The notes: generated from the sequence alone by a model not told the origin. Shown: positions 2,600 through 13,651, numbered from the stretch's first letter. The stretch is 22,967 nt of DNA from an uncultured delta proteobacterium (GCA_963792965.1 CAWBYW010000036.1:1-22967), one strand, 5' to 3'. Made by a program: numbers and translations.

Positions 2600-3616
2600 C
2601 TATCCCTCCCGCATGATATCGAAAGTCGGAATATTCGGTATTCCCGCCCTCATCCCGTCCAGGAAGGGGAGCGGGCTAAAATCCACCCCCTCGGGGTTAT
2701 GGGGGTTTATCGTCAACGCAATAACCTTGATTTCCCGCTCCACCTCGATTCTCCCGCCGCCCGCCTCGAACATCGCCTTTGATCTCTCGGAGATGAACAG
2801 GCGCGTGGGATCCCGGACGACGACGACCGGGAAAAGACGCTCGGCCATAAGCGATTCGATAACGCCGTCGGACAGGGCCCCCGATATGAAGAGGAAGTCC
2901 TTCCCCCGCTTTAACGAATCGACCAGCGTCCTCAGGTCGGTGATCGCCGAGCCTTCCGTCACCTCCCACTCACTCCCGTCGGCGCTCGTGGCAAAGTAGC
3001 GGGCGATCCCGCGGGCGTTCGGCGACACACATTGTGTCCGCCTCGTCATGAACAGACCCGCCACATGGCGGGTTTTTGTCACCACCGAGTCTATGTCGGG
3101 CCCGAGGATTGCCCCGGTCGCCAGCACGATCCCTTCTGAAACGTCGGGCGTCGCCACGGCCACGCGGTCAAGGGACCCGTCAATAATGACCCGGCGGACC
3201 CTATCTTCCTTGATCAGCGTGGACGCAAGCTCTCCCGTCTCGGCCGCCGTGGCGGGCCCCTCGAGGATCACCAGGGTTCGCCGCCGCGCTCCCACAACCA
3301 CGATCCTTCCGAGGGCCGTGATAAAGCGGGTATCCCTGACCCGGAAGAGCCCCTCGCTATCTGCAAACGATCGCTCGCTCGTAGTGGCCACGATACCCGG
3401 AACGATAGTGACACGCGGCTTTTCCCTCCGGGTTATTTCGTCGATCGCCTCGCCGTCTCTCCCCGTGGAGGTAAGGGCAAGCGCCTCGGGTCTTTGTTCG
3501 AGGTGTTTCACGAGATAGAGCAGGGTCGTCGTCTTCCCGGTGTTCTTTGCCAGGCCCACTACCGCAATTACCCGGGAGTCCTCTCCCAGGACGAGGTCGA
3601 TGAGGGTCTCACGCAT
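2600..3616 (-). CDS. kamB: Lysine 5,6-aminomutase accessory/reactivase subunit KamB-like P-loop protein
   Basis: VVGLAKNTGKTT P-loop, TSTGRDGE...D.ITRREKP, IIDGSLDR, LATGA; sits between kdd and kamD as in kam clusters. Confidence 0.7.
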   Translation of the reverse strand: MRETLIDLVLGEDSRVIAVVGLAKNTGKTTTLLYLVKHLEQRPEALALTSTGRDGEAIDEITRREKPRVTIVPGIVATTSERSFADSEGLFRVRDTRFITALGRIVVVGARRRTLVILEGPATAAETGELASTLIKEDRVRRVIIDGSLDRVAVATPDVSEGIVLATGAILGPDIDSVVTKTRHVAGLFMTRRTQCVSPNARGIARYFATSADGSEWEVTEGSAITDLRTLVDSLKRGKDFLFISGALSDGVIESLMAERLFPVVVVRDPTRLFISERSKAMFEAGGGRIEVEREIKVIALTINPHNPEGVDFSPLPFLDGMRAGIPNIPTFDIMREG

Positions 3617-4646
3617 AGAGCTTCATGAAGATCTCCCTCAACGCCGGGCTTTCCCGGAGGATGTTGAGAGAGATCTCGGCATGACCCTTGGTATACCCGT
3701 TCCCGATGATCATCGTCGCGTCCGAGGCGATCCCCTCGGCGCCGAGGGCCGCCTTGGTGAAGCTGGTCGCCATCGAGAAGAAGTAGATGAGCCCGTCGTT
3801 CTTTGTGGCGAGTATCGAGCCCATCTCGGTGTTCGGGATGTTGACGCAGTTGATGGTGATGTCGGCCATGCGGCCGCCGGTGAGCTTTGAGACCGCCTTT
3901 TCCACCTCGATGGGATTGGTGGCGTTCACCTGGACGACGTGGTCGCAAAAGCCGAGCTCCTTGATCCTTTTGGTGCTCTCCGGGCTGTGACCGGTGCCGA
4001 TGACCGTCCCGGTGACGCCGGCGCGTCGCCTGGCCTCGTACGCGCACAGCATCCCCGACTTTCCGCCGGCGCCGATGACGAAAACACAGTCGCCGGGTTT
4101 GACAAGCTTGGCCGTCTGGGCGGCCGCCCCGGCTACATCGAGGATCGCCAGCGCCACCGACTGGGGCATGTCTTCGGGGAGCTTGACGTAGATCCCGCTT
4201 TCAAACAGGATCGCCTTGCCGATGATGTCCACCTGATCACGGTCCGGCCGGATCTCGACGATCTTATCGATGGCAAGGGGGGTCGTCGAGAGGGAGACGA
4301 GTGAGGCGATGAAATCCCCCGGCCGTATCTTGACCGTGTCTTTGAGGGCCGGGCCGACCTCGGCGATCGTCCCCATGAACATCCCGCCGGATCCGGTGAC
4401 GGGGTTATGCTGTTTCCCCCGGTTCTTGACGGTGTCCATGATGATCCGGCCGATCTTTTCCGTGTCATGGCCCGCCTCTTCCTCGATCTGGGTGAAGGAG
4501 GCCGAGTCAACGTTGAGGGTTTTCACGTTTACGAGGATCTCGTTATCGTAGATCTCCATGGTATTGTCGATCTTATCCGCCGCCTGGGGGAGCACACCTT
4601 TAGGCGCGATGACCCGGTGTGCCCCGTATTTATCCCCTTTCTTCAT
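3609..4646 (-). CDS. kdd: L-erythro-3,5-diaminohexanoate dehydrogenase
   Basis: MKKGDKYGAHRVIAPKGVLPQAA...NVDSASF...RGKQHNPVTGSGGM...LDVAGAAAQ...FFSMATSFTKAALGAEG. ATG at 4646 with AGGAG 6 nt upstream. Confidence 0.93.
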   Translation of the reverse strand: MKKGDKYGAHRVIAPKGVLPQAADKIDNTMEIYDNEILVNVKTLNVDSASFTQIEEEAGHDTEKIGRIIMDTVKNRGKQHNPVTGSGGMFMGTIAEVGPALKDTVKIRPGDFIASLVSLSTTPLAIDKIVEIRPDRDQVDIIGKAILFESGIYVKLPEDMPQSVALAILDVAGAAAQTAKLVKPGDCVFVIGAGGKSGMLCAYEARRRAGVTGTVIGTGHSPESTKRIKELGFCDHVVQVNATNPIEVEKAVSKLTGGRMADITINCVNIPNTEMGSILATKNDGLIYFFSMATSFTKAALGAEGIASDATMIIGNGYTKGHAEISLNILRESPALREIFMKLYA

Positions 4647-4757
4647 CACACGCTCCTTTATAATCACCCTGTCGCATTACGACGTCACACGGGGCCGAGA
4701 GCACCGCGCGCCGTTGATGGTCGGACATAACTATCTCATATCACACTAAAAATTACT

Positions 4758-4787
4758 ATTAAACAACAAACCGCGGCCTTCTGTCAA
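4758..4787 (-). promoter_or_regulatory. Candidate sigma70 promoter for the kdd-kam operon
   Basis: Minus strand TTGACA (4787-4782), 18 nt spacer, TTTAAT (4763-4758), in AT-rich intergenic DNA. Confidence 0.5.
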
Positions 4788-4933
4788 CCAAATTCATCAA
4801 CGATGCCCGCTCAAGCCGTTTCCTCCTCGTTCCCCGGATGGATACGCCCATCGAGGCCGTCGGACCTATCATATGCGCGCCCGGATATCGTGCGTCACGC
4901 TCAAAAACATGATGATTTTACCTCACTATATCC

Positions 4934-4962
4934 TTGACAAACCTCAACGTAATGAGTAAATA
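4934..4962 (+). promoter_or_regulatory. Candidate sigma70 promoter for precursor 1
   Basis: TTGACA 4934-4939, 17 nt spacer, weak -10 TAAATA 4957-4962. Confidence 0.4.
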
Positions 4963-5085
4963 GGTAAGAATAGAGCGATGGGCCAGCATATCTCCCCTTC
5001 ACGAGAGAGAAGGATATGCGTGCTATCTGTTATCGCATTGCCGTCTCTGAGATGGACAGGACCATAATAAACGTAGGAGAAGACA

Positions 5086-5412
5086 ATGGAAGACAAGAGT
5101 AAAAGGGAAACGACGCAGAGCCAAAAAGACAACGCGCAGGGCCCCGAGAAGGTGGGACGACGCGAAGCCCTGAAGCGCATGGCCAAGGGACTCGCGCTGG
5201 TCGGGACGTTGGGCATCACCGCCGTTGTCACTCAGGGTCAGGATCAGTGTACTCCTCCCGTTCCCCCCGGTCTCTACTCAAACAGTTACTATAACTATTC
5301 AAACGCCTACTATAACTACTCCAACACATATTATAACTATTCTAACACCTACTACAACTACTCGAACGCATACTATAACTACTACAACAGCGGCGGCTAC
5401 TACAACTGGTAG
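5086..5412 (+). CDS. Putative RiPP-like/lipoprotein precursor 1 (RR leader, Cys55, YSNxYYN heptad core)
   Basis: AGGAGAAGACA-ATG; leader VGRREALKRMAKGLALVGTLGITAVVTQGQDQC; core of five YSN(S/A/T)YYN repeats; four paralogs adjacent. Confidence 0.88.
   Translation: MEDKSKRETTQSQKDNAQGPEKVGRREALKRMAKGLALVGTLGITAVVTQGQDQCTPPVPPGLYSNSYYNYSNAYYNYSNTYYNYSNTYYNYSNAYYNYYNSGGYYNW
5275..5379 (+). repeat. Five 21-nt coding tandem repeats (YSNxYYN)
   Basis: tactcaaacagttactataac / tattcaaacgcctactataac / tactccaacacatattataac / tattctaacacctactacaac / tactcgaacgcatactataac. Confidence 0.9.
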
Positions 5413-5596
5413 TCACAGACAGCACCGGCTCGCGTTGATTGGGGAGGCGATAACTTTGTTCATCGTCTCCCTTCTTGCCTTCCGCACGTTTTGCGTCTCC
5501 AGGAAAAGCGGACATCGTCTTCTCCTTTCCGCCCGCATTGGGTACCCGCCTCGAATTGGAGGCAATGTCTATTTTTAGCTGTCTATTGAAAAGCGC

Positions 5597-5625
5597 TTGA
5601 ATTATCCCTCCGGCTGTACTATACT
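5597..5625 (+). promoter_or_regulatory. Candidate sigma70 promoter for precursors 2-3
   Basis: TTGAAT 5597-5602, 17 nt spacer, TATACT 5620-5625; near-identical to 6868-6896. Confidence 0.6.
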
Positions 5626-5733
5626 TTTAAAAGGAAAATCTCACGATTTGACGGGCTGAGAACTCGTCATCGATACATCTAAAATTGTCTTGCCTGCTTT
5701 ATTTCGAGAACGCAATAAAACAAGGAGAAGACA

Positions 5734-6189
5734 ATGAAAGATAGACGGGGCACGGAGATACCGAAAGACAAAACCCCGTACGCCGACGAGCAGAAAAGAA
5801 TCGGCCGGCGCGAGGCGATGAAGCGAATGGCCAAGGGGATTGTATTGATCGGCACCCTCGGCATGGCGAGTATCGTCACCCGGACCGAGGGTGAATGCGC
5901 CTATTTTGACCATCACTCCAACACATACGATAATTACTACAATTACTACAACGCAAATCTGTTTTACTACAACGCATATTTCTACTACAACTATTACGAC
6001 TACTACGATTACCACAACTACTATAACGCATATTCCAATTACGTAAATTATTATGTCAACATATACGAATTCAATCCAGGATTCTACTATTTTGATTATT
6101 ACCGTGAGCGTGACCGCGACAGTGACCATGACCGAGATCGCGACCGTGATCGAGACCACGACCGCGACAGATACCGCCGCAACAGATGA
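5734..6189 (+). CDS. Putative precursor 2 (RR leader, Cys55, Y/N/D-rich core, Arg-Asp repeat tail)
   Basis: AGGAGAAGACA-ATG; IGRREAMKRMAKGIVLIGTLGMASIVTRTEGEC; YDNYYNYYN...YYDYYDYHNYYN; RERDRDSDHDRDRDRDRDHDRDR tail. Confidence 0.85.
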   Translation: MKDRRGTEIPKDKTPYADEQKRIGRREAMKRMAKGIVLIGTLGMASIVTRTEGECAYFDHHSNTYDNYYNYYNANLFYYNAYFYYNYYDYYDYHNYYNAYSNYVNYYVNIYEFNPGFYYFDYYRERDRDSDHDRDRDRDRDHDRDRYRRNR

Positions 6190-6365
6190 GCGCGCGGGTC
6201 GACGCGGCCACCCCCAGACAAGAATATGCCGGAGCAGACCGCGGGTTATACGCGAGGACACGGGACCTGTGGTTCCATGCCAAAGGTAATCGGCATCCCC
6301 CCAGGCTTGACCGGCGATCGTCTTTTCGCCTCACAGCTATAACGTGAAGAGCCGAGGAACGGGTA

Positions 6366-6686
6366 ATGGATGATAGAGAAAAGCGAGGAGCGCCCGCAAA
6401 CGAAATCCGGGGAGTCGGAAAAGAGGAGAAGATCGGCCGGCGCGAGGCGATGAAGCGCATCGCCAAAGGGATCGCGTTGGTCGGCTCCCTCGGGCTCACC
6501 GCCGCCGCGCTCCAGGGCCAGGGCGAGTGCGGATATGTAAACTACTACGTCAACTCATACTATAATTACTCCAACGCATATTATAACTATTACGATTACA
6601 GCAACTACTACAACTATTATAACTATTACAACTATAGCAATTCGTATTTCAACCACTTCCACCACTACCGCGACCATCACCATTAA
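6366..6686 (+). CDS. Putative precursor 3 (RR leader, Cys55, YxN core, His-rich tail)
   Basis: GAGGA RBS; IGRREAMKRIAKGIALVGSLGLTAAALQGQGEC; YVNYYVNSYYNYSNAYYNYYDYSNYYNYYNYYNYSN; HFHHYRDHHH. Confidence 0.87.
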   Translation: MDDREKRGAPANEIRGVGKEEKIGRREAMKRIAKGIALVGSLGLTAAALQGQGECGYVNYYVNSYYNYSNAYYNYYDYSNYYNYYNYYNYSNSYFNHFHHYRDHHH

Positions 6687-6867
6687 CGGGCCCGTGGGCC
6701 GAAACGTGACCCCCACAAAAGATCACGTCGGATAACCTCATCAACTTTTCGGTAAGGCAACAACCTGCCGGCGCGTACACCTGTTGCCGACCGCGCGGAT
6801 CATCGATCGCAAGAACTGCCATGCGGGAGATATCCGATAAAAAAGTCGACCATCAACTAACGTTCGT

Positions 6868-6896
6868 TTGACATATCCCTCCTTCTGTACTATACT
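6868..6896 (+). promoter_or_regulatory. Sigma70 promoter candidate for precursor 4
   Basis: TTGACA 6868-6873, 17 nt spacer, TATACT 6891-6896. Confidence 0.65.
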
Positions 6897-7062
6897 TTTA
6901 TAAAGATTATCCAAGGAATAACAGCACAAGCGAGGGAAAAGGAGAATAGGAATAGGCGGAACCGAAGACTACACCAGGACAGATCAAGAGCATCGGCACC
7001 GTTGAGTATAGAATTGTCTTACCTGCTTTATCGTGGAAACACAATGGAATAAGGAGGGGGCA

Positions 7063-7392
7063 ATGGAAAAAGGAAAAAGGAAGGGGACGCCGATTGAGGA
7101 GGGCGCGCAATCCCGTGAGACGGAAGGAATTTCACGGCGTGAGGCGATGAAACGTATGGCCAAGGGTGTGGCGCTGGTCGGGACCCTCGGTCTCACGAGT
7201 GCTGTCGTCGGGGGTCAGGGTGAGTGTGGATATGTAAACTACTACGTTAACGTGTATTATAACTATTTTGACTCGTATTCCAATTGGGGCTTCTTTTATT
7301 ACAACTTCCACGAAGGGTTTGAAGAGCGCGGGGAACACGAAGAGCATGAGGAGCACGAGGGCGGTGAGCGTCGCGGGGGGGGACGGCGTTAG
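7063..7392 (+). CDS. Putative precursor 4 (RR leader, Cys55, short YxN core, HEE-repeat tail)
   Basis: AAGGAGG at 7051-7057 before ATG 7063; this start puts the Cys at residue 55 as in paralogs 1-3. ISRREAMKRMAKGVALVGTLGLTSAVVGGQGEC; EHEEHEEHE tail. Confidence 0.85.
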   Translation: MEKGKRKGTPIEEGAQSRETEGISRREAMKRMAKGVALVGTLGLTSAVVGGQGECGYVNYYVNVYYNYFDSYSNWGFFYYNFHEGFEERGEHEEHEEHEGGERRGGGRR

Positions 7393-7601
7393 GACAGAGT
7401 GACCTGCCCGTGTGCGGTGCTTCACGAAGTTTTCCTTCATGTCGCCCTTCCTGCCCACTCCGCCACAATGTTGGCGGCATGGGGAGGCGCGAGACGGGCG
7501 GCTATCCCTTGGCTGGAGTCGTTTCCCGGGGGAGCCTGATATGCCATACCGATTTCGGGGCCGGATTCAATCCGCTCATATTTGACTGGGCGATTATGTA
7601 C

Positions 7602-7630
7602 TTGACGGAAGTCAGAGTATGCAGTATATT
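7602..7630 (+). promoter_or_regulatory. Candidate sigma70 promoter for precursor 5 and the maturase operon
   Basis: TTGACG 7602-7607, 17 nt spacer, TATATT 7625-7630. Confidence 0.55.
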
Positions 7631-7788
7631 TTTTAGACTACACGGCTCGTGAAATAGAAAAGAAACGCCGTTCAGGGGTCTAGTATATACGAAGGAATCG
7701 AGAAGTTCGAAACATCGCACAGTCTGGTAAGATCGTACTACCTTACTATCGAGTTTGCCCCTCTATGGAATTGAGCAGAGAATAGACA

Positions 7789-8142
7789 ATGAACGACAAA
7801 AAGAAGAGCGAAAAGCCGGCCGTCGAGAAGGGAGCTGAGAGCAACGAGAAGCTAAGCCGTCGCGAGGCCATGAAACGAATGGCAAAAGGCATCGCACTGG
7901 TCGGGACACTGGGCGTCACGGCCCTTGTAACGCAGGGTCAGGACGAGTGCACCGGCGGTTATAGCAACCTCTATTATAACTATTCGAACGCATACTACAA
8001 CTACTCCAACTCCTACTCTAACTATTCAAACTCCTATACCAACTATACAGAATTGTACTATAACTATTATAACTACAACAATTATTCCGATTACCAAAAT
8101 TATTCTGATTACCAGAATTATTACGATTACTACAACAATTAG
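7789..8142 (+). CDS. Putative precursor 5 (RR leader, Cys54, long YxN/YxD core)
   Basis: LSRREAMKRMAKGIALVGTLGVTALVTQGQDEC; YSNLYYNYSNAYYNYSNSYSNYSNSYTN...YSDYQNYSDYQNYYDYYNN. Confidence 0.88.
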   Translation: MNDKKKSEKPAVEKGAESNEKLSRREAMKRMAKGIALVGTLGVTALVTQGQDECTGGYSNLYYNYSNAYYNYSNSYSNYSNSYTNYTELYYNYYNYNNYSDYQNYSDYQNYYDYYNN

Positions 8143-8280
8143 ACTGGTGGATGAAAAGACTCGCTGTTTGTATACCACCGTTCCGTTCCGTTGGGGCGGT
8201 TTGGCCGTTTGGTTCGGGCTCATACTCGCCGTAGAACGCGATAATCGCCCGTCCTCATTTTTACCATTCGGGGAGCAACT

Positions 8281-9312
8281 GTGGCAAACCTCCTGATGAC
8301 ATCCCGATGCGTCCGCTCGTGCCCTTACTGCTTCGCCAAACGTGAGATGGACGACTCCGCCTCGGGCGGCGTTGTTTCCTGGGAAAACCTGATATACCTT
8401 ACCGATTTCCTGGCCGCATCCAATCAGGATCACATTTCTCTCCTCGGCGGTGAGCCCACACTTCATCCACAGTTCGTCGATATGGTGCTGTTCCTCCTTG
8501 AGCGCCGGTTTCACGTCACCGTATTCACCAGCGGCATCATGTCCGACAAACGCCTGGCCGAGCTGGCGGAGCACCTCGCCCCGCTGTCTGCCGAGCGGTT
8601 GAGCTTCGTCGTAAATCTCAACAACCCGGTTCAGACCCCCGCACCCGCCCACGAGAAGAGCCGTATCGAGCGGTTCCTCTCTCTGATGGGCCCCTGGTCG
8701 ACCCCGGGATTCAACATCTATCGGCCCGATTTCGATATCGAATTCCTGTTTGACCTCATCAGCCGTTACGGGATGAGACGGCACATTCGCCTCGGACTGG
8801 CATCCCCGATGCCCGGGGTGAGCAGCACATATATCCGCCCGGAAGAGGTCAGAGATATTGCCGCCAGGCTTTATACATTCAGCCCCCTCTTCGATCGGCT
8901 GGCGGTCAAGCCGGGGCTCGACTGCGGCTTTCCCCTGTGCGCATTTACCGACGAACAGCTCGGGTGGCTCACACGATATTCCGGCATGTTCAAGTTCGGC
9001 TGCGGCCCGGCCGTCGACCTGACCCCCGACCTGAACGTCTACGCATGTTTTCCCCTGTCGGGGTTTCATAAGAGGTCGCTGTTCGAGTTCGACTCCATGC
9101 ACCAGGTCAACGAGTTCTACATGGGGCTTTTCAACCGTATCCGCAGCGAGACGGCTGGTATCTATGAGGAGTGCGACGGCTGCGTCCACCGCGAGGAGGG
9201 GAGGTGTTCGGGAGGCGGCGCCTGCCAGGTGATGAACCGATTCGTGGGTGAAGCACCCGTGAGGCTTGTGGAGATAGAACGTGGGCTTTCCAAACCTTGT
9301 TTGTCCGTTTGA
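8281..9312 (+). CDS. Radical SAM protein with C-terminal SPASM/twitch-like Cys domain
   Basis: CVRSCPYC (CxxxCxxC), LLGGEPTLHP, CGFPLC, CGPAVDLTPDLNVYAC, CDGC...CSGGGAC. GGGGAG RBS before the GTG. Confidence 0.88.
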   Translation: MANLLMTSRCVRSCPYCFAKREMDDSASGGVVSWENLIYLTDFLAASNQDHISLLGGEPTLHPQFVDMVLFLLERRFHVTVFTSGIMSDKRLAELAEHLAPLSAERLSFVVNLNNPVQTPAPAHEKSRIERFLSLMGPWSTPGFNIYRPDFDIEFLFDLISRYGMRRHIRLGLASPMPGVSSTYIRPEEVRDIAARLYTFSPLFDRLAVKPGLDCGFPLCAFTDEQLGWLTRYSGMFKFGCGPAVDLTPDLNVYACFPLSGFHKRSLFEFDSMHQVNEFYMGLFNRIRSETAGIYEECDGCVHREEGRCSGGGACQVMNRFVGEAPVRLVEIERGLSKPCLSV

Positions 9313-10159
9313 TCAAGCGCTGATCGCGCGCCTTACCGATCGGGTAATCGTTCCCCGGGTCACGGACCCCTCCCTTATAGTTGACGCCGTGGGTCTTGTG
9401 CGCGCATCGACAAACCGCCTCTCCACGCTCATCCTCGACACCGGCCTTCCGGTAGCGGAAATACCCTTCAGCAAGGAGTGGGAAGGCGTGGCCCTGGCGG
9501 TCTTCGCCCCCTCGATGGGAAACTTTCGCGGGGTCGCCCGACACATCGAGTTGATCAGGCGCCTCGACCCCACGATCTACCTCCCGGTCGACAGCGGCGA
9601 GAACCTCTCGGCCCTTCGCGTACTCTCGTCGGTCGACGTCCGGTGCGCGGCTGTCTTCACGGGGCCCGGCCCGGTCGACTGGGAAGGGCTTTCCGATCTC
9701 ATGACCTACGCCATTCTCGGAACCGTCCCCCACGCATCGATCGAGCCCTTCGCCTATATCTCCGCCCGGTATCGAGCCGCCGGCTGGGTCAGGTGGGGCT
9801 CGGTCTTTTTTGACGATCCGCAGGACTTCTTCCACCTCGACAGAGAAGGGCGCGTGGCGCTGTCGGCCCGGGAGCTCGCCGAGGGAGCCTTCATCGAGGA
9901 AGACGTCGAGCGCCTCGACGATATCGCCAGCTACCCGGCCTACCGTCAGCGGATCGGCGTGCCGAAGGACATCTTCCTGGACTATCATCCCTGCTCGCGC
10001 TGCCCGGGGTGGCGCCTCTGCCTCGGGAGATTCGCGATCGGGTCGGAGGCACCGGAGGGGTGCGCCTCCTTTTTTAGCGAGATGATCGATCTCCTTCAGC
10101 AGTATCGGGGCCGTCAAAAGCAGTCGAAAAAGGAGCTCAATGACAACCGTCATCTTTAA
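9281..10159 (+). CDS. Radical SAM partner protein: no CxxxCxxC, C-terminal SPASM-like CxxC-x5-C...C cluster
   Basis: Overlaps both neighbours; ends HPCSRCPGWRLCLGRF...EGC; no SAM-cluster motif at the N-terminus. Confidence 0.7.
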   Translation: MGFPNLVCPFDQALIARLTDRVIVPRVTDPSLIVDAVGLVRASTNRLSTLILDTGLPVAEIPFSKEWEGVALAVFAPSMGNFRGVARHIELIRRLDPTIYLPVDSGENLSALRVLSSVDVRCAAVFTGPGPVDWEGLSDLMTYAILGTVPHASIEPFAYISARYRAAGWVRWGSVFFDDPQDFFHLDREGRVALSARELAEGAFIEEDVERLDDIASYPAYRQRIGVPKDIFLDYHPCSRCPGWRLCLGRFAIGSEAPEGCASFFSEMIDLLQQYRGRQKQSKKELNDNRHL

Positions 10160-12218
10160 GCCGACCGAGGCCTGCAACGGCAACTGTGTCTATTGTGAGG
10201 TGGTCAGGAAGGACCGCGAGCGGGGTGCACGGCTGCCCCAGGAGGCGCTCGAGCGATTCTTCATCAGGATCAATGAATTTCTCCTTGCGCGCCCGGAGGA
10301 GCGATTTCAGATCATCTGGCACGGCGGGGAGCCGCTGCTGTTGGGACCGGACTATTTCATGCGGGCCCATGAATACGAGAATAAGCACTGTCCCGAGACA
10401 AAAGATCGCATCACTCACGACATCCAGACCAACATCACCCTCTTCACGCGCGAATACGCGGAGGTATTCCGGACAATCGGGATAAGCCGGGTCAGCACGA
10501 GCTACGACCCGATCCCGGACGTTCGCGGGCTCGGGATTTCCACCGATTCGAAGGCCTATAATCGCCGCTTCATGGACGCGCTCTCGCTCCTCGACGAGGA
10601 GGGTTTCGACTGGGGGATGATCTATGTGGTCACCAAGCTGTCACTCGCGCACCCCCTCGATATCTTCTATTTCCTGACCAACCTCAATAAGACCGGTTCG
10701 GTCAAGTTCAACCCGATCTATTTCTACAAGCGGCGGATACAGGAGCTGGCGGTGACGCCCGAGGAGTTCGTCGAGTTTCTCGGCGCGATCTTTCCGGTCT
10801 GGTGGGAGCACCGGGAGCGTTTCCAGGGTACCCGGCCTTTTAACTCCTTTGTCGAGGCGATCATTGAAGGGAGCGGCGGCCTGGAATGCGCCGAGTCCGG
10901 GGCCTGCGCCGACTCACACTTTTCTCTGGGACCGTCCGGCACCTTTTCCCAGTGCGGTCGCTCCTCGGACTGGGGGCTTTTGGACTACGGTTCGGTCCAG
11001 GATCAGTCAATCGAGGCGGTATTCACCCACCCGCACAAGGAGCTATTCCGGTCACGATCACCCCGGCTCAAAGAGGGAGAGTGTAAGGGATGCCGATTCT
11101 GGGAGCTGTGTCACGGGGGATGTCCGCTGGACGCCTATGCCGAGACGGGTGATTGGCTAAAAAAATCTCCGCTCTGCGCCTATAGGAAGGGCTTCATCGA
11201 AAAGTACTTCGAGCCGATCACCGGGGTGCGCTACGAGCCGGACGCGCCAAGCCGCGTGCCCGAACCGGCGGACGAGCCAGCAGAGCCGAGCCGGGAAGTA
11301 AAGAAGATCGTGTCGTTCCCCTCCCCGCCGAAGAATAAACCCGTCTGGATCAATCCCTTCGGCGGACTTGGCGATACGGTGATCCTTTCCAGCGTCCTGA
11401 AGGCCGGGCTCGATAAAAACCCAAAAAGAAGGTTCAACGTAGTCGCCCGCACATCCTACGGCGAGCTGCTGCGGGGTCACCCGGCCGTCGACAAGATCGG
11501 GAATCCGCCCCCCGGCACTTATGTCGTCTCCACCGCCTATTGGGATCACCCCGACTTCGGCGGCCCCGGCGGGAGGCCCTTCGGTATTCTTTCCCGAATG
11601 CTCGGGCTTGATCTTCCTCAAGAGGGGCCCTTGTTCGTCCCGCCACCGATCGAGATCGACGAGCTCCTTGTCTCGCGCATCCCGTTTTCCGGCAGGAACG
11701 TCCTGATCTGCCCCTCCTGTTCTTCACCGCGGAAGGAGATGGAACTGAGCACCTGGGAGGCTGTGGTCACCGAGCTATCCGCGCAGGGGGTCTTCGTCGC
11801 CCAGGCAGGAAGGCGGCATGATCGCTACGTCCGGGGGGCTTTCAGCCTCCTCGGCGTCACCACCCCGCGTCAGCTCATTGCCCTCGTCTCAAGATTTGAC
11901 GCCATAGTGGCGACTGACAACTTCATGGGACCCGCTGCGCATCTGGTCGGGAGGCCGGCCGTCGTCCTCTGGGGGCCGACCGACCCGGCAACCTTCGGCT
12001 ACCCTTCCCAGACCCACCTGTTGGGGCACCGAATCTGCCAGAACCCCGAGGGATGCCTTGCCCGCGGACGGGCGACGCTCTATGCGACCCGCTGCCCCCT
12101 CGGGCCGTCTCACTGCATGAACCGGATAGAAGCCAACGCGATCGTCGCGGCGGTGAAAAAAGTCTTGGCGGGCGCCAGCGAGAAAGGAAAGGCGATCGGC
12201 ACCGGTCCTAAAACGTAA
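10140..12218 (+). CDS. Radical SAM/SPASM maturase fused to a C-terminal GT9 (heptosyltransferase-like) glycosyltransferase
   Basis: KPTEACNGNCVYC, IWHGGEPLL, IQTN, CAESGAC...QCGR...CKGCRFWELCHGGCP...LC; Pro-rich linker; then GGLGDTVILSSVL, SPRKE, TDNF...AAHLVGRPAVVLWGPTDP and a C-terminal Cys cluster typical of GT9. Confidence 0.88.
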   Translation: MTTVIFKPTEACNGNCVYCEVVRKDRERGARLPQEALERFFIRINEFLLARPEERFQIIWHGGEPLLLGPDYFMRAHEYENKHCPETKDRITHDIQTNITLFTREYAEVFRTIGISRVSTSYDPIPDVRGLGISTDSKAYNRRFMDALSLLDEEGFDWGMIYVVTKLSLAHPLDIFYFLTNLNKTGSVKFNPIYFYKRRIQELAVTPEEFVEFLGAIFPVWWEHRERFQGTRPFNSFVEAIIEGSGGLECAESGACADSHFSLGPSGTFSQCGRSSDWGLLDYGSVQDQSIEAVFTHPHKELFRSRSPRLKEGECKGCRFWELCHGGCPLDAYAETGDWLKKSPLCAYRKGFIEKYFEPITGVRYEPDAPSRVPEPADEPAEPSREVKKIVSFPSPPKNKPVWINPFGGLGDTVILSSVLKAGLDKNPKRRFNVVARTSYGELLRGHPAVDKIGNPPPGTYVVSTAYWDHPDFGGPGGRPFGILSRMLGLDLPQEGPLFVPPPIEIDELLVSRIPFSGRNVLICPSCSSPRKEMELSTWEAVVTELSAQGVFVAQAGRRHDRYVRGAFSLLGVTTPRQLIALVSRFDAIVATDNFMGPAAHLVGRPAVVLWGPTDPATFGYPSQTHLLGHRICQNPEGCLARGRATLYATRCPLGPSHCMNRIEANAIVAAVKKVLAGASEKGKAIGTGPKT

Positions 12219-12985
12219 TGCACCCCATCCTCTTCACCATCGGCCGTCACCTCGTCTACGGCTACGGTTTTTTCGTGACCCTCGGCTATCTCTCGGGCGT
12301 CGTACTCTTTCTCGCGCTCGTCGGCCGTGAGGGGCTCCCCGTCTGGACGGGAGTTGACCTCATCCTCTGGATGCTTCCCTCGGCCCTGATTGGGGCAAAG
12401 CTTCTCTTCATCGTAACCAACTGGGACGAATTCGTCATGCAGCCTTCCCCCACCGCGGGCGGCTGGTCCTTCCAGGGGGCGCTCCTCGGGGCGCTCGCCC
12501 TGGCCCTTTTCCTTTTCAGGAGGCGGCGGCTTGACGCTTGGCGGTGGCTCGACACCGCAGCGCCGTCGCTTGCGCTCGTCGCCGCAGTGGGCAGGATTGG
12601 GTGCCTCATGGCAGGCTGCTGCTACGGCTCCCCCACGAGTCTGCCCTGGGGCGTCGTCTTCACCAAATCGACGGTCGCCCCCCTCAACACCCCCCTGCAC
12701 CCGACCCAGGTCTACTACCTGATAGCAAATCTCGCCATATGTGTTACGCTGCTGGCGCGCAGGAGGACGGCGGCTTTTCGCGGAGAGCTGATTCTCCTGT
12801 TCGTCCTCCTCTACACGACCTCCCGCAGCATAATCGACCCCTTCCGGGGTGGTGTCGAAAAGACCTACCTGTGGGGCACCGTCACCGCCTACCAGATCAT
12901 CACGATCACCGCGATTATCGTCGTGGCTCTCCTCTACCTCCGAATGAGGGAGAGGAATAAGACGGAAGACCGGATCGCCGATTGA
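12218..12985 (+). CDS. lgt: Prolipoprotein diacylglyceryl transferase family protein (cluster-encoded Lgt)
   Basis: MHPILFTIG...YGFF, IGAKL, GGWSFQGA, LDTAAPSLAL...GRIGCLMAGCCYGSPTSLPWGVVF...LHPTQVY, RSIIDPFRG. TAATG coupling to the upstream gene. Confidence 0.88.
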   Translation: MHPILFTIGRHLVYGYGFFVTLGYLSGVVLFLALVGREGLPVWTGVDLILWMLPSALIGAKLLFIVTNWDEFVMQPSPTAGGWSFQGALLGALALALFLFRRRRLDAWRWLDTAAPSLALVAAVGRIGCLMAGCCYGSPTSLPWGVVFTKSTVAPLNTPLHPTQVYYLIANLAICVTLLARRRTAAFRGELILLFVLLYTTSRSIIDPFRGGVEKTYLWGTVTAYQIITITAIIVVALLYLRMRERNKTEDRIAD

Positions 12986-12995
12986 CCCGGATGTT

Positions 12996-13520
12996 CTAAC
13001 GACTCGGCTCGTTCACCGGCGGCTGGAACTGTCCATCCACGGGGCGCCAGCGGTCCGTGGATTTAGGATCGATATGGTAGCCGATGTCTTTTTCGTCGTC
13101 GAAGACGTGAAGGGGACGGAAGGCGTCGTTGTCGGTGATCTCCCAAATATCAAGGTTCGGGTCGTCGTCGAGGTTGGCCCAGGCCCGGGCGAGAAAGGCC
13201 GTGCAGTCGGCCGATATAATTGACCATTCGTAGCGGCGGGTCTTTGGCGGGGAAAAATCGAGCACTGCGGGATCCCGGGAAAAGCAGTGATGCGTCGCAT
13301 AGTAGCTCATCTCGGAGTCATAAAGGGACGCAAGGATATCTTCGGCTTCCTTCTGTTTTGGCTCGGTATAGGCGGATCGAAAAATAGGGATCGTGACGGC
13401 GAAAAAACCGACGGCAAGACAGATCAGGACGGCGGCTGCGATGAGTATGAGGGTCCTCGTATCTGTAAACCGGCTCGGTTTCTTGGAAGAATCGAAAGCT
13501 CGATCTTTCTTCTGAGGCAT
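12996..13520 (-). CDS. Type IV pilin-like membrane protein lacking the prepilin cleavage motif
   Basis: TM helix, then IPIF...KQKEAEDILASLYDSEMSYYA...DFSP...RY...FLARAWANLDDDPNLDIWEI, resembling the deltaproteobacterial PilA globular region. No G|FTLIE. Start at ATG 13520 is tentative. Confidence 0.6.
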   Translation of the reverse strand: MPQKKDRAFDSSKKPSRFTDTRTLILIAAAVLICLAVGFFAVTIPIFRSAYTEPKQKEAEDILASLYDSEMSYYATHHCFSRDPAVLDFSPPKTRRYEWSIISADCTAFLARAWANLDDDPNLDIWEITDNDAFRPLHVFDDEKDIGYHIDPKSTDRWRPVDGQFQPPVNEPSR

Positions 13521-13651
13521 GTCAATCCTGCCACGTCCTTCGTTAATCGACCGGTCCGACCATAACGGGTCGGCCGATCGTCGAGCCGCCCTGACGCCTG
13601 CCACAAGACAATATCAGCTCTGACCGTTACTCTTGCCCGACTTCGTCGCCC

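Follow-up and report, generated by a model that had tools for sequence, protein, structure and literature searches.

A candidate peptide-maturation locus with Tyr-repeat precursors, radical SAM enzymes, a GT9 domain and an Lgt paralog in an uncultured deltaproteobacterium, and its relatives in other phyla

A 22,967 nt stretch of DNA from an uncultured delta proteobacterium (GCA_963792965.1 CAWBYW010000036.1:1-22967), referred to here at its full length as the window, carries a block of nine co-directional genes that resembles a locus for peptides that are made on ribosomes and modified after translation (RiPPs). Open reading frame (ORF) calling places all nine on the plus strand, with five small precursor genes at 5086-8142 followed by genes for a radical SAM enzyme (rSAM1), a 292 amino acid (aa) protein (p292), a radical SAM/SPASM enzyme fused to a GT9-like glycosyltransferase (the fused maturase), and a paralog of the diacylglyceryl transferase Lgt. 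These last four genes overlap, by 32 nt (rSAM1 and p292), 20 nt (p292 and the fused maturase) and 1 nt (fused maturase and Lgt), and the block is flanked by minus strand genes at 3609-4667 and 12996-13604. The five paralogous precursors, the four overlapping genes on one strand and the oppositely oriented flanks were all found just as the first-pass annotation of this DNA had described them. The overall architecture of the system is put forward with high confidence, and the complete chain, in which a RiPP-like system would cross-link, glycosylate and lipid-anchor exported, Tyr-rich peptides, is judged narrowly probable from the sequence comparisons given below. The genes of the block and the convergent neighbour are as follows.

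5086..5412, plus strand: precursor 1, 108 aa, with RR leader, hydrophobic stretch, QGQDQC and (A/T)YYNYSN repeats (ORF, alignment, profile match E 7e-49)
5734..6189, plus strand: precursor 2, 151 aa, with the common leader, a Y/N/D core and an Arg-Asp repeat tail (ORF, alignment, profile)
6366..6686, plus strand: precursor 3, 106 aa, with the common leader, a YYNYSN/YYNYYD core and a His-rich end (ORF, alignment, profile)
7063..7392 (ORF from 7033), plus strand: precursor 4, with the common leader, a short Y/N core and a Glu/His-rich tail (ORF, alignment, profile, ribosome-binding repeat)
7789..8142, plus strand: precursor 5, 117 aa, with the common leader and a YSN/YYN/YSD/YQN core (ORF, alignment, profile)
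8281..9312, plus strand: rSAM1, 343 aa, radical SAM enzyme (PF04055, 50.3 bits)
9281..10159, plus strand: p292, 292 aa, outside any family, with a predicted fold like that of radical SAM/SPASM proteins (ORF, AlphaFold2 (AF2) model, Foldseek)
10140..12218, plus strand: radical SAM/SPASM enzyme (residues ~1-375) fused to a GT9-like glycosyltransferase (~396-692), 692 aa (Pfam, NCBIfam)
12218..12985, plus strand: cluster-specific Lgt paralog with the signature GRIGCLMAGCCYG (PF01790, 156 bits)
12996..13604, minus strand: convergent membrane-anchored protein, 174-202 aa, with a faint pilin-like match (synteny in six loci)

The start of precursor 4 is likely at 7063, a position given by a ribosome-binding repeat that is conserved at each of the five precursors. 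The G+C content over 4501-8500 is 0.49-0.52, compared to about 0.57-0.64 in most of the remaining window, and this low value fits the abundance of Tyr and Asn codons. Promoter-like sites were found 5' of three precursors, at 5597-5625 (precursor 2), 6868-6896 (precursor 4, 11/12 matches) and 7602-7630 (precursor 5). Two copies of a 47 nt element (5594-5640 and 6865-6911, 81% identical) lie upstream of precursors 2 and 4 and contain a promoter-like site of the form TTGAAT/TTGACA-17-TATACT. The precursor genes seem to have promoters of their own.

Pfam and NCBIfam matches to Radical SAM, SPASM, GT9 and LGT (PF01790) models bear out the identities first proposed for rSAM1, the fused maturase and the Lgt. 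With a p292 profile, matches were obtained in 15 of 401 genomes from the phylum, and a p292 scan with one genome per species gave 40 loci for comparison. These come from metagenome-assembled genomes (MAGs) labelled as about ten phyla: Thermodesulfobacteriota/deltaproteobacteria, Acidobacteriota, Spirochaetota, Bacteroidales, Ignavibacteria, Verrucomicrobiota, Planctomycetota, Nitrospirae, Alphaproteobacteria, Polyangia and others. The gene for rSAM1 lies beside p292 in 39 loci, with the sole miss at a contig end; the SPASM enzyme is present in all 40, GT9 in 28, and a Tyr-rich repeat ORF with the leader in 34, with one to three precursors elsewhere against five in the window. The possibility that the small ORFs are chance products of low-complexity DNA was rejected on account of the conservation of the leader across phyla. 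The arrangement, for which co-occurrence of leader and enzymes was the check proposed with the first-pass annotation, is not due to chance: it is found again with synteny in six related genomes, and its core in the 40 loci. These data support the view that the precursors and three radical SAM-fold proteins form one conserved system, and the cluster belongs to a widespread family of such systems in uncultured anaerobic bacteria.

Within the window's own family, six loci share the gene order precursors-rSAM1-p292-maturase-Lgt with the convergent membrane protein, despite differing outer flanks. The fused maturase is full or near-full length in seven of the nine other family genomes, and in pieces with stops in one of them (G005), while 31 sampled genomes of other families gave only generic radical SAM/SPASM matches to it. 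At the G005 locus (L024 / L071, G005:C2) p292, maturase, Lgt and pilin-like genes are split over several frames with stops. Its two precursors and its rSAM1 seem undamaged, and decay of the cluster appears to be under way in this genome. The Lgt together with the pilin-like neighbour occurs in three of the 40 loci, all from the window's family, so both are additions of that family only and lie outside the core. An all-against-all comparison of the neighbours in the 40 loci found no protease or transporter that is conserved, in line with the first-pass statement that peptidase and exporter are missing. The sole further recurrent neighbour is a protein of ~395-410 aa without a Pfam match, present in 10 of the 40 loci between precursor and rSAM1 (e.g., L036, 6769-7956) and not in the window. 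A PADLOC search returned generic viperin-type radical SAM similarity only, with no sign of a known defence system.

The precursor cores consist of Tyr-based repeats that vary by lineage: YYNYSN in the window, and YYNYGD, YSRYSR, YSSYGS, GYTS or YDDYY elsewhere. The cores of 48 precursors contain 894 Tyr, and in 626 of these the residue at +2 is N, S, D or R, compared to 341 ± 11 in shuffles within cores (n = 1000, maximum 376); since repeats are not independent events, this figure is descriptive and not a probability. Triceptides are defined by an aromatic-X-X3 motif in which the aromatic ring becomes linked to C-beta of residue three, and YDR is the motif on which ChlB acts (PMC11499958). An Aro-Xaa-Asn motif has been noted for strained cyclophanes (PMC9062424). 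The Tyr-X-(N/S/D/R) spacing fits the aromatic-X-X3 motif of triceptide cyclophanes.

Several observations on the cores stand apart from this. Charged tails follow the core in precursors 2, 3 and 4 (Arg-Asp repeats, His-rich and Glu/His-rich, respectively; 6100-6189 and 7300-7392 in the window) and not in the other two. In a MAG labelled Bacteroides, a Tyr/Ser-repeat precursor (L063, 8604-9353, plus strand) combines a canonical lipobox, LSSC, with a Peptidase_S74 domain ('chaperone of endosialidase', E 4e-16) at its C-terminus. Such domains are typical of trimeric fibre proteins, which hints that the repeats may form a fibre. Another locus (L033, G153:C350, 8796-9531, minus strand) encodes two peptides with a canonical-looking twin-arginine translocation (Tat) leader, SRRAFLTSLG, followed by CRVWGNR repeats; they adjoin two radical SAM/SPASM genes and a weak p292-like match (E 5.7e-13), and may represent a sister system with another repeat.

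The proposed cross-linking enzyme for the cores is the fused maturase. Its N-terminal part matches PF04055 (44.5 bits) and the SPASM model TIGR04085 (42.3 bits, cut-off 27), and its C-terminal part matches GT9 (PF01075, 28.7 bits, cut-off 22) at residues 516-620, corresponding to model positions 103-218 of 247 only. The best curated NCBIfam matches of the SPASM enzyme are DynA, anSME, DarE, DarW, AmcB, GrrM/OscB and YhhB, and the best among PDB sequences are anSME (69 bits) and ChlB (37.7 bits). Searched against solved structures, a profile of the GT9 domain found WaaF (E 3.7e-5), WaaC (E 0.013) and one GT9 protein, with no other solved relatives. The GT9 part has four invariant C-terminal Cys. 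An intact GT9 ORF is present in 27 loci, 16 of which have it fused to the SPASM enzyme and 11 as a separate gene.

The first of the four overlapping genes encodes rSAM1, in which a CxxxCxxC motif (C10, C14 and C17) and seven further invariant Cys were seen in a 26-sequence alignment, a count as expected for a SPASM domain. The second had been annotated as a 'SPASM-only' protein, a label that does not hold at the sequence level. Neither TIGR04085 nor PF13186 matches p292, its invariant Cys number only four (C238, C241, C247 and C261, all C-terminal), and the radical SAM motif CxxxCxxC is missing. Its sequence has no match in Pfam or NCBIfam, even at E <= 10, or in the PDB sequences, and a p292 profile also found nothing in the PDB sequences. 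The likeness lies in the predicted fold: the AF2 model (pLDDT 89.4) has ChlB as its best Foldseek match (E 7.8e-4, TM 0.61), then anSME, and also SuiB, CteB and PqqE. On the strength of this model, p292 is probably a catalytically dead partner with a radical SAM fold. The family comprises 442 clusters in 1.84 billion representatives.

A variant of the module is found next to a lasso-peptide gene set (L032, G371:C21, 2450-9718) that consists of an ABC exporter, a PqqD-transglutaminase B protein and an Asn-synthase-like C protein. The set is followed by a 54 aa ORF and then by rSAM1 and a 528 aa p292-GT9-like fusion; a SPASM enzyme is missing. The 54 aa ORF has the sequence KRREALKRIS, no hydrophobic stretch, and a T-x-G...D pattern, which is typical of a lasso core, so that the locus would be one for a lasso peptide tailored by the rSAM1/p292-GT9 module. 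The fusion implies that p292 and the GT9-like domain work together.

From the Tyr spacing and the curated matches of the SPASM domain, C-C cross-links of the cyclophane type at the Tyr triplets are a possible chemistry for the cores, proposed tentatively and at somewhat less than an even chance. A number of results weigh against it or against the roles given to the enzymes. The scores of the SPASM enzyme are all below the cut-offs of the curated families: DynA 141/450, DarE 98/650, AmcB 84/425, GrrM 82/310, YhhB 75.5/445, FxsB 58/370 and XyeB 38.6/450. As every curated family is so far away, the type of cross-link is only a lead. rSAM1 resembles known families only across its first ~100 residues, and a profile-profile comparison of p292 and rSAM1 found no similarity (probability 0.1). 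The repeats may instead carry other modifications, such as ether or C-N links (darobactin- or dynobactin-like), Tyr-Tyr coupling, epimerisation or anSME-like oxidation of Ser or Asn, with the sugar perhaps attached to a residue activated by rSAM1 and p292. The failure to reach any family cut-off speaks for such a chemistry, as does anSME being the best solved relative by sequence; the lasso variant, where rSAM1 and p292-GT9 occur without a SPASM enzyme, implies a module with a chemistry of its own, and in HXS a +8 Da change of undefined chemistry results from two radical SAM enzymes (PMC13128918). The strong Tyr-X-(N/S/D/R) enrichment, which matches the published triceptide motif including its Tyr-first form, argues the other way, and other chemistry is considered rather unlikely.

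The leaders of the precursors are much more uniform than the cores. The five peptides of the window share invariant R25, R26, E27, A28, K30, R31, A33, K34, G35 and C55 in the alignment, and an alignment of 33 precursors shows full conservation of R24, R25 and A27 and almost full conservation of K29, R30 and A32, giving a motif RRxA[LIM]KR[IM]A that mostly has S or T before it. A signal-like hydrophobic stretch follows the motif in 51 ORFs and leads to AxA-like or lipobox ends. The twin-arginine consensus is S/T-R-R-x-F-L-K, and the leader motif fits it with Ala replacing Phe. The proposal that the leaders are Tat signals is favoured by the presence of RR in 33 of 33 leaders, by weak TIGR01409 matches in 16 of the 33 (at E <= 10, best 0.0034), by a precursor relative that NCBI names as a Tat-signal protein (the other named ones among 91 clusters are 'hypothetical'), and by TatC being encoded in the genome. 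General export is plausible, as the system has no protease or exporter that is conserved with it. The precursor peptides matched none of the Pfam or NCBIfam families, and TIGR04117 (Cys-Xaa-Xaa-Xaa repeat radical SAM target) was rejected as a relative, with one weak leader match (E 0.013) and scores below cut-off in the genome.

The leaders thus look like Tat signals, and two results count against reading them so. The five leaders of the window have no TIGR01409 or Pfam Tat match at E <= 0.01, and the lasso precursor carries the RR motif without a hydrophobic stretch and beside an ABC exporter, where it cannot be a Tat signal. The maturases can therefore read the motif independently of export, and the RR motif probably serves also, or instead, as their recognition sequence. 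If it served for recognition only, the peptides would be exported by Sec, anchored in the membrane by their N-termini or released like classical RiPPs. The lasso precursor and the missing curated match would be explained, and RRxA[LIM]KR[IM]A is tighter than the Tat consensus; the agreement of the motif with S/T-R-R-x-hydrophobic-hydrophobic-K, the hydrophobic stretch with AxA-like or lipobox ends in the 51 ORFs and the weak Tat model matches point to export by Tat, whose typical cargo includes proteins that Fe-S enzymes have modified in the cytoplasm. A role in recognition only is regarded as improbable.

The invariant Cys of the first-pass annotation holds for the five peptides of the window and not beyond. 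In the window's family (f1), 14 of 17 peptides have a Cys after the hydrophobic stretch, compared to 12 of 34 other precursors. The Cys of f1 is always in an acidic box, Q-D/G-E/Q-C (e.g., TQGQDEC, QGQGEC or FFQDEC). A canonical lipobox, by the PROSITE-type rule, was found in 5 of the 34 distant precursors, and the others end AxA-like or in Cys. Two further precursor-like genes are located elsewhere in the same genome (G000:C7; L025, 4497-4922, plus strand, and L026, 4819-5229, minus strand). Both share the common leader, with cores of the Y-x-N / Y-S-D type, but lack a Cys behind the hydrophobic stretch. Maturase genes are absent from their surroundings, and the two may be substrates that are modified in trans.

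The cluster Lgt is full-length by PF01790 (156.4 bits, model positions 1-238 of 240), aligns to E. coli Lgt (5AZB) across residues 2-239, and scores under the cut-off of TIGR00544 (89.9 vs 118.9). The genome has three Lgt genes, of which the cluster copy scores lowest against the Pfam LGT model. One has the canonical signature GRIGNFINGELFG (C26), and the lspA-linked copy and the cluster copy both have the Cys-rich GRIGCLMAGCCYG in place of GRxGNFxNxExxG. This puts Cys at the positions of N146 and E151, residues important in E. coli Lgt. The sole lspA of the genome directly adjoins an Lgt with GRIGCLMAGCCYG (G000:C16:199850-201057, L002), and the occurrence of the Cys-variant in this classic position suggests that it is an active Lgt subtype. 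We know of no study of a Cys-variant Lgt. Across ten genomes of the family, the first (canonical) type is present in each and the second type is full-length in eight, being in two pieces in G009 and partial at a contig end in G008. Eight cluster-bearing genomes have a further, cluster-linked Lgt (frameshifted in G005), and one without the cluster (G002) has two Lgts only. In a tree of 25 Lgt sequences, from which the third copy of G001, the frameshifted cluster copy of G005, the two-piece copy of G009 and the partial copy of G008 were left out, the seven cluster copies group together (100/99) in a clade that lies inside the diversity of the second type. A single ORF of 949 aa spans maturase and Lgt in G009.

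The clade and the apparent in-frame fusion to the maturase indicate that the cluster Lgt is a dedicated paralog, as first proposed, although a lineage-specific one and not a core component. The acidic Cys box and the cluster Lgt co-occur in the loci examined, neither being found without the other, and this is the main argument from which we infer that the Lgt serves the precursors. Lipidation of the precursor Cys by the cluster Lgt is finely balanced. Several findings tell against it. None of the five window peptides or the 17 f1 peptides satisfies the lipobox rule, and three f1 peptides and the two orphan paralogs lack the Cys. The signature change at N146 and E151 affects the lspA-linked, presumably housekeeping copy as well. 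G001 has a third Lgt on a 2.8 kb contig without a cluster gene, and the fusion in G009, known from one assembly, may reflect an indel error. The Lgt may be a passenger duplicate, a membrane tether that brings the maturase to where export takes place, or a transferase with a different nucleophile as acceptor, with the Cys serving, for example, for a thioether or metal binding. Such roles would agree with an acidic box that fails the lipobox rule throughout f1, with substrates that lack Cys, with the absence of a cluster Lgt from 37 of the 40 loci and with its altered active-site signature. They are harder to reconcile with the joint appearance of box and Lgt, the 1 nt overlap with the maturase gene, the apparent G009 fusion and the single conserved clade, and the same signature in the copy adjoining lspA argues for an active Lgt; a non-lipidating Lgt is deemed unlikely. 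Lipidation at the Cys, as first proposed, is supported by the canonical lipobox in a few of the distant precursors and has no such basis in f1.

The convergent gene next to the cluster Lgt (12996-13604) likely encodes a protein of 174 aa, starting from a Met at 13523, with a PilA-like match at E 0.099 only. Each of the six family loci has it beside the Lgt, including those with different outer flanks, and the distant loci lack it. Its family consists of 27 clusters, in which every available source name is 'hypothetical'.

A working model can be assembled from these parts. In the cytoplasm, the SPASM enzyme would make C-C (cyclophane-type) cross-links at Tyr-X-(Asn/Ser/Asp/Arg) triplets, rSAM1 and the catalytically dead p292 would make a second modification, and the GT9 domain would add a sugar. 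The maturases would use the signal peptide's conserved n-region as their recognition sequence too, and the finished peptide would exit by the Tat pathway. In the window's family only, a duplicated and recruited Lgt would diacylglycerylate the Cys of the acidic box Q-D/G-E/Q-C, which the ordinary lipobox rule would reject, and LspA would cleave after diacylglyceryl transfer, so that the product in this family would be a membrane-anchored, cross-linked glyco-lipopeptide. A more speculative version, which we hold to be quite unlikely in its full form, is that p292 holds the n-region like a Tat proofreading chaperone while it is read by the maturases, before Tat reads it in turn, that the Lgt co-evolved with the acidic box, and that the product is a surface layer or fibre of cyclophane-cross-linked, glycosylated, lipid-anchored Tyr repeats that serves syntrophic anaerobes as a structure, in redox reactions or as a barrier to phages. 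If so, this would be, to our knowledge, the first substrate-dedicated Lgt.

Should the model be correct, the system would represent a radical SAM-based, Tat-routed branch of RiPP-lipoprotein hybrids marked by p292, whose 442 clusters have no Pfam or NCBIfam model, and cyclophane-type chemistry, so far a matter of small secreted peptides, would reach long envelope proteins with Tyr repeats in ten or more phylum-level groups of anaerobes that are uncultured. The dedicated Lgt paralog together with the acidic box offers a natural test of how Lgt reads a lipobox, and a signal peptide that doubles as a RiPP leader is a testable case. Even without the model, the locus marks out a four-gene module, conserved and as yet unnamed, that is worth a family model.

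Of the known enzymes with which the components can be compared, the Lgt family is matched over its full length by PF01790, and the window copy differs by the signature GRIGCLMAGCCYG and by its third, operon-embedded location. The GT9 heptosyltransferases WaaC and WaaF are the sole solved relatives of the GT9 part, which scores above the PF01075 cut-off; here the match is partial and the domain is fused or adjacent to a radical SAM enzyme. TibC and Aah are autotransporter heptosyltransferases, and TibC has a Cys-bound iron site, which the four invariant C-terminal Cys of the GT9 part may recall by analogy. The sulfatase-maturing enzyme anSME modifies proteins in the cytoplasm before export, and is both the best solved sequence relative of the SPASM domain and its second best NCBIfam match (130 bits). 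Unlike anSME, the SPASM enzyme scores under the cut-off of that family (349), has no sulfatase nearby, and no C/S-x-P-x-R motif was seen in the precursors inspected.

Triceptides are similar in having a radical SAM/SPASM maturase without a RiPP recognition element (RRE) domain and a repeated aromatic-X-X3 core motif, and Tyr-first motifs are known among them (ChlB, YDR; PMC11499958). The triceptide group (ChlB, XyeB, GrrM/OscB, YhhB, DynA and DarE) also holds the best curated matches of the SPASM domain, and ChlB is the best fold match of p292. The present system differs from triceptides as they are known by a second radical SAM enzyme with a pseudo-radical SAM partner, the GT9 fusion, precursors of 80-250 aa with signal peptides, and the lack of a protease or exporter.

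Closest in gene content is HXS (HxsA-D, Nat Commun 2026), in which a protein with His-X-Ser repeats and a signal peptide is matured in the cytoplasm by two radical SAM enzymes plus a small partner and has an antiphage role in the periplasm (PMC13128918). The shared traits are the two radical SAM enzymes with a small or non-catalytic partner, X-x-Ser type repeats, a signal peptide, cytoplasmic maturation and a place of action in the envelope. HxsB and HxsC are among the weak NCBIfam matches, far under their cut-offs (57.4/370 and 19.9/267.9), HxsA4 is weakly matched by 2 of the 33 precursors, and Pfam and NCBIfam scans of the window proteins found no HxsD and no peptidoglycan-binding domain. 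Unlike HXS, which as described in that text is without both GT9 and Lgt, the system has these proteins and repeats that are based on Tyr and not on His. DAG-RiPPs (RiPP-lipoprotein hybrids, PNAS 2026) are MNIO-modified peptides with a lipoprotein signal that are lipidated by the host Lgt (PMC13056109). In common are modification in the cytoplasm combined with a lipoprotein-type signal, and leader removal and anchoring by the lipoprotein pathway, with a canonical lipobox in some distant members of the present system. The differences are the radical SAM enzymes (the phrase 'radical SAM' does not occur in PMC13056109), the signal that looks like the Tat type, the dedicated Lgt and the acidic box.

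The first-pass annotation did not recognise the architecture as a described class. In the literature searched, which was without most subscription journals and supplements, no paper was found that describes this gene combination, nor one that joins a heptosyltransferase, a radical SAM enzyme and a RiPP. The claim of an undescribed class needs tempering, since DAG-RiPPs (PMC13056109) and HXS (PMC13128918) embody its main ideas. RiPP-lipoprotein hybrids and exported repeat proteins matured by radical SAM enzymes were both published in 2026, and each of the two main ideas has its precedent there.

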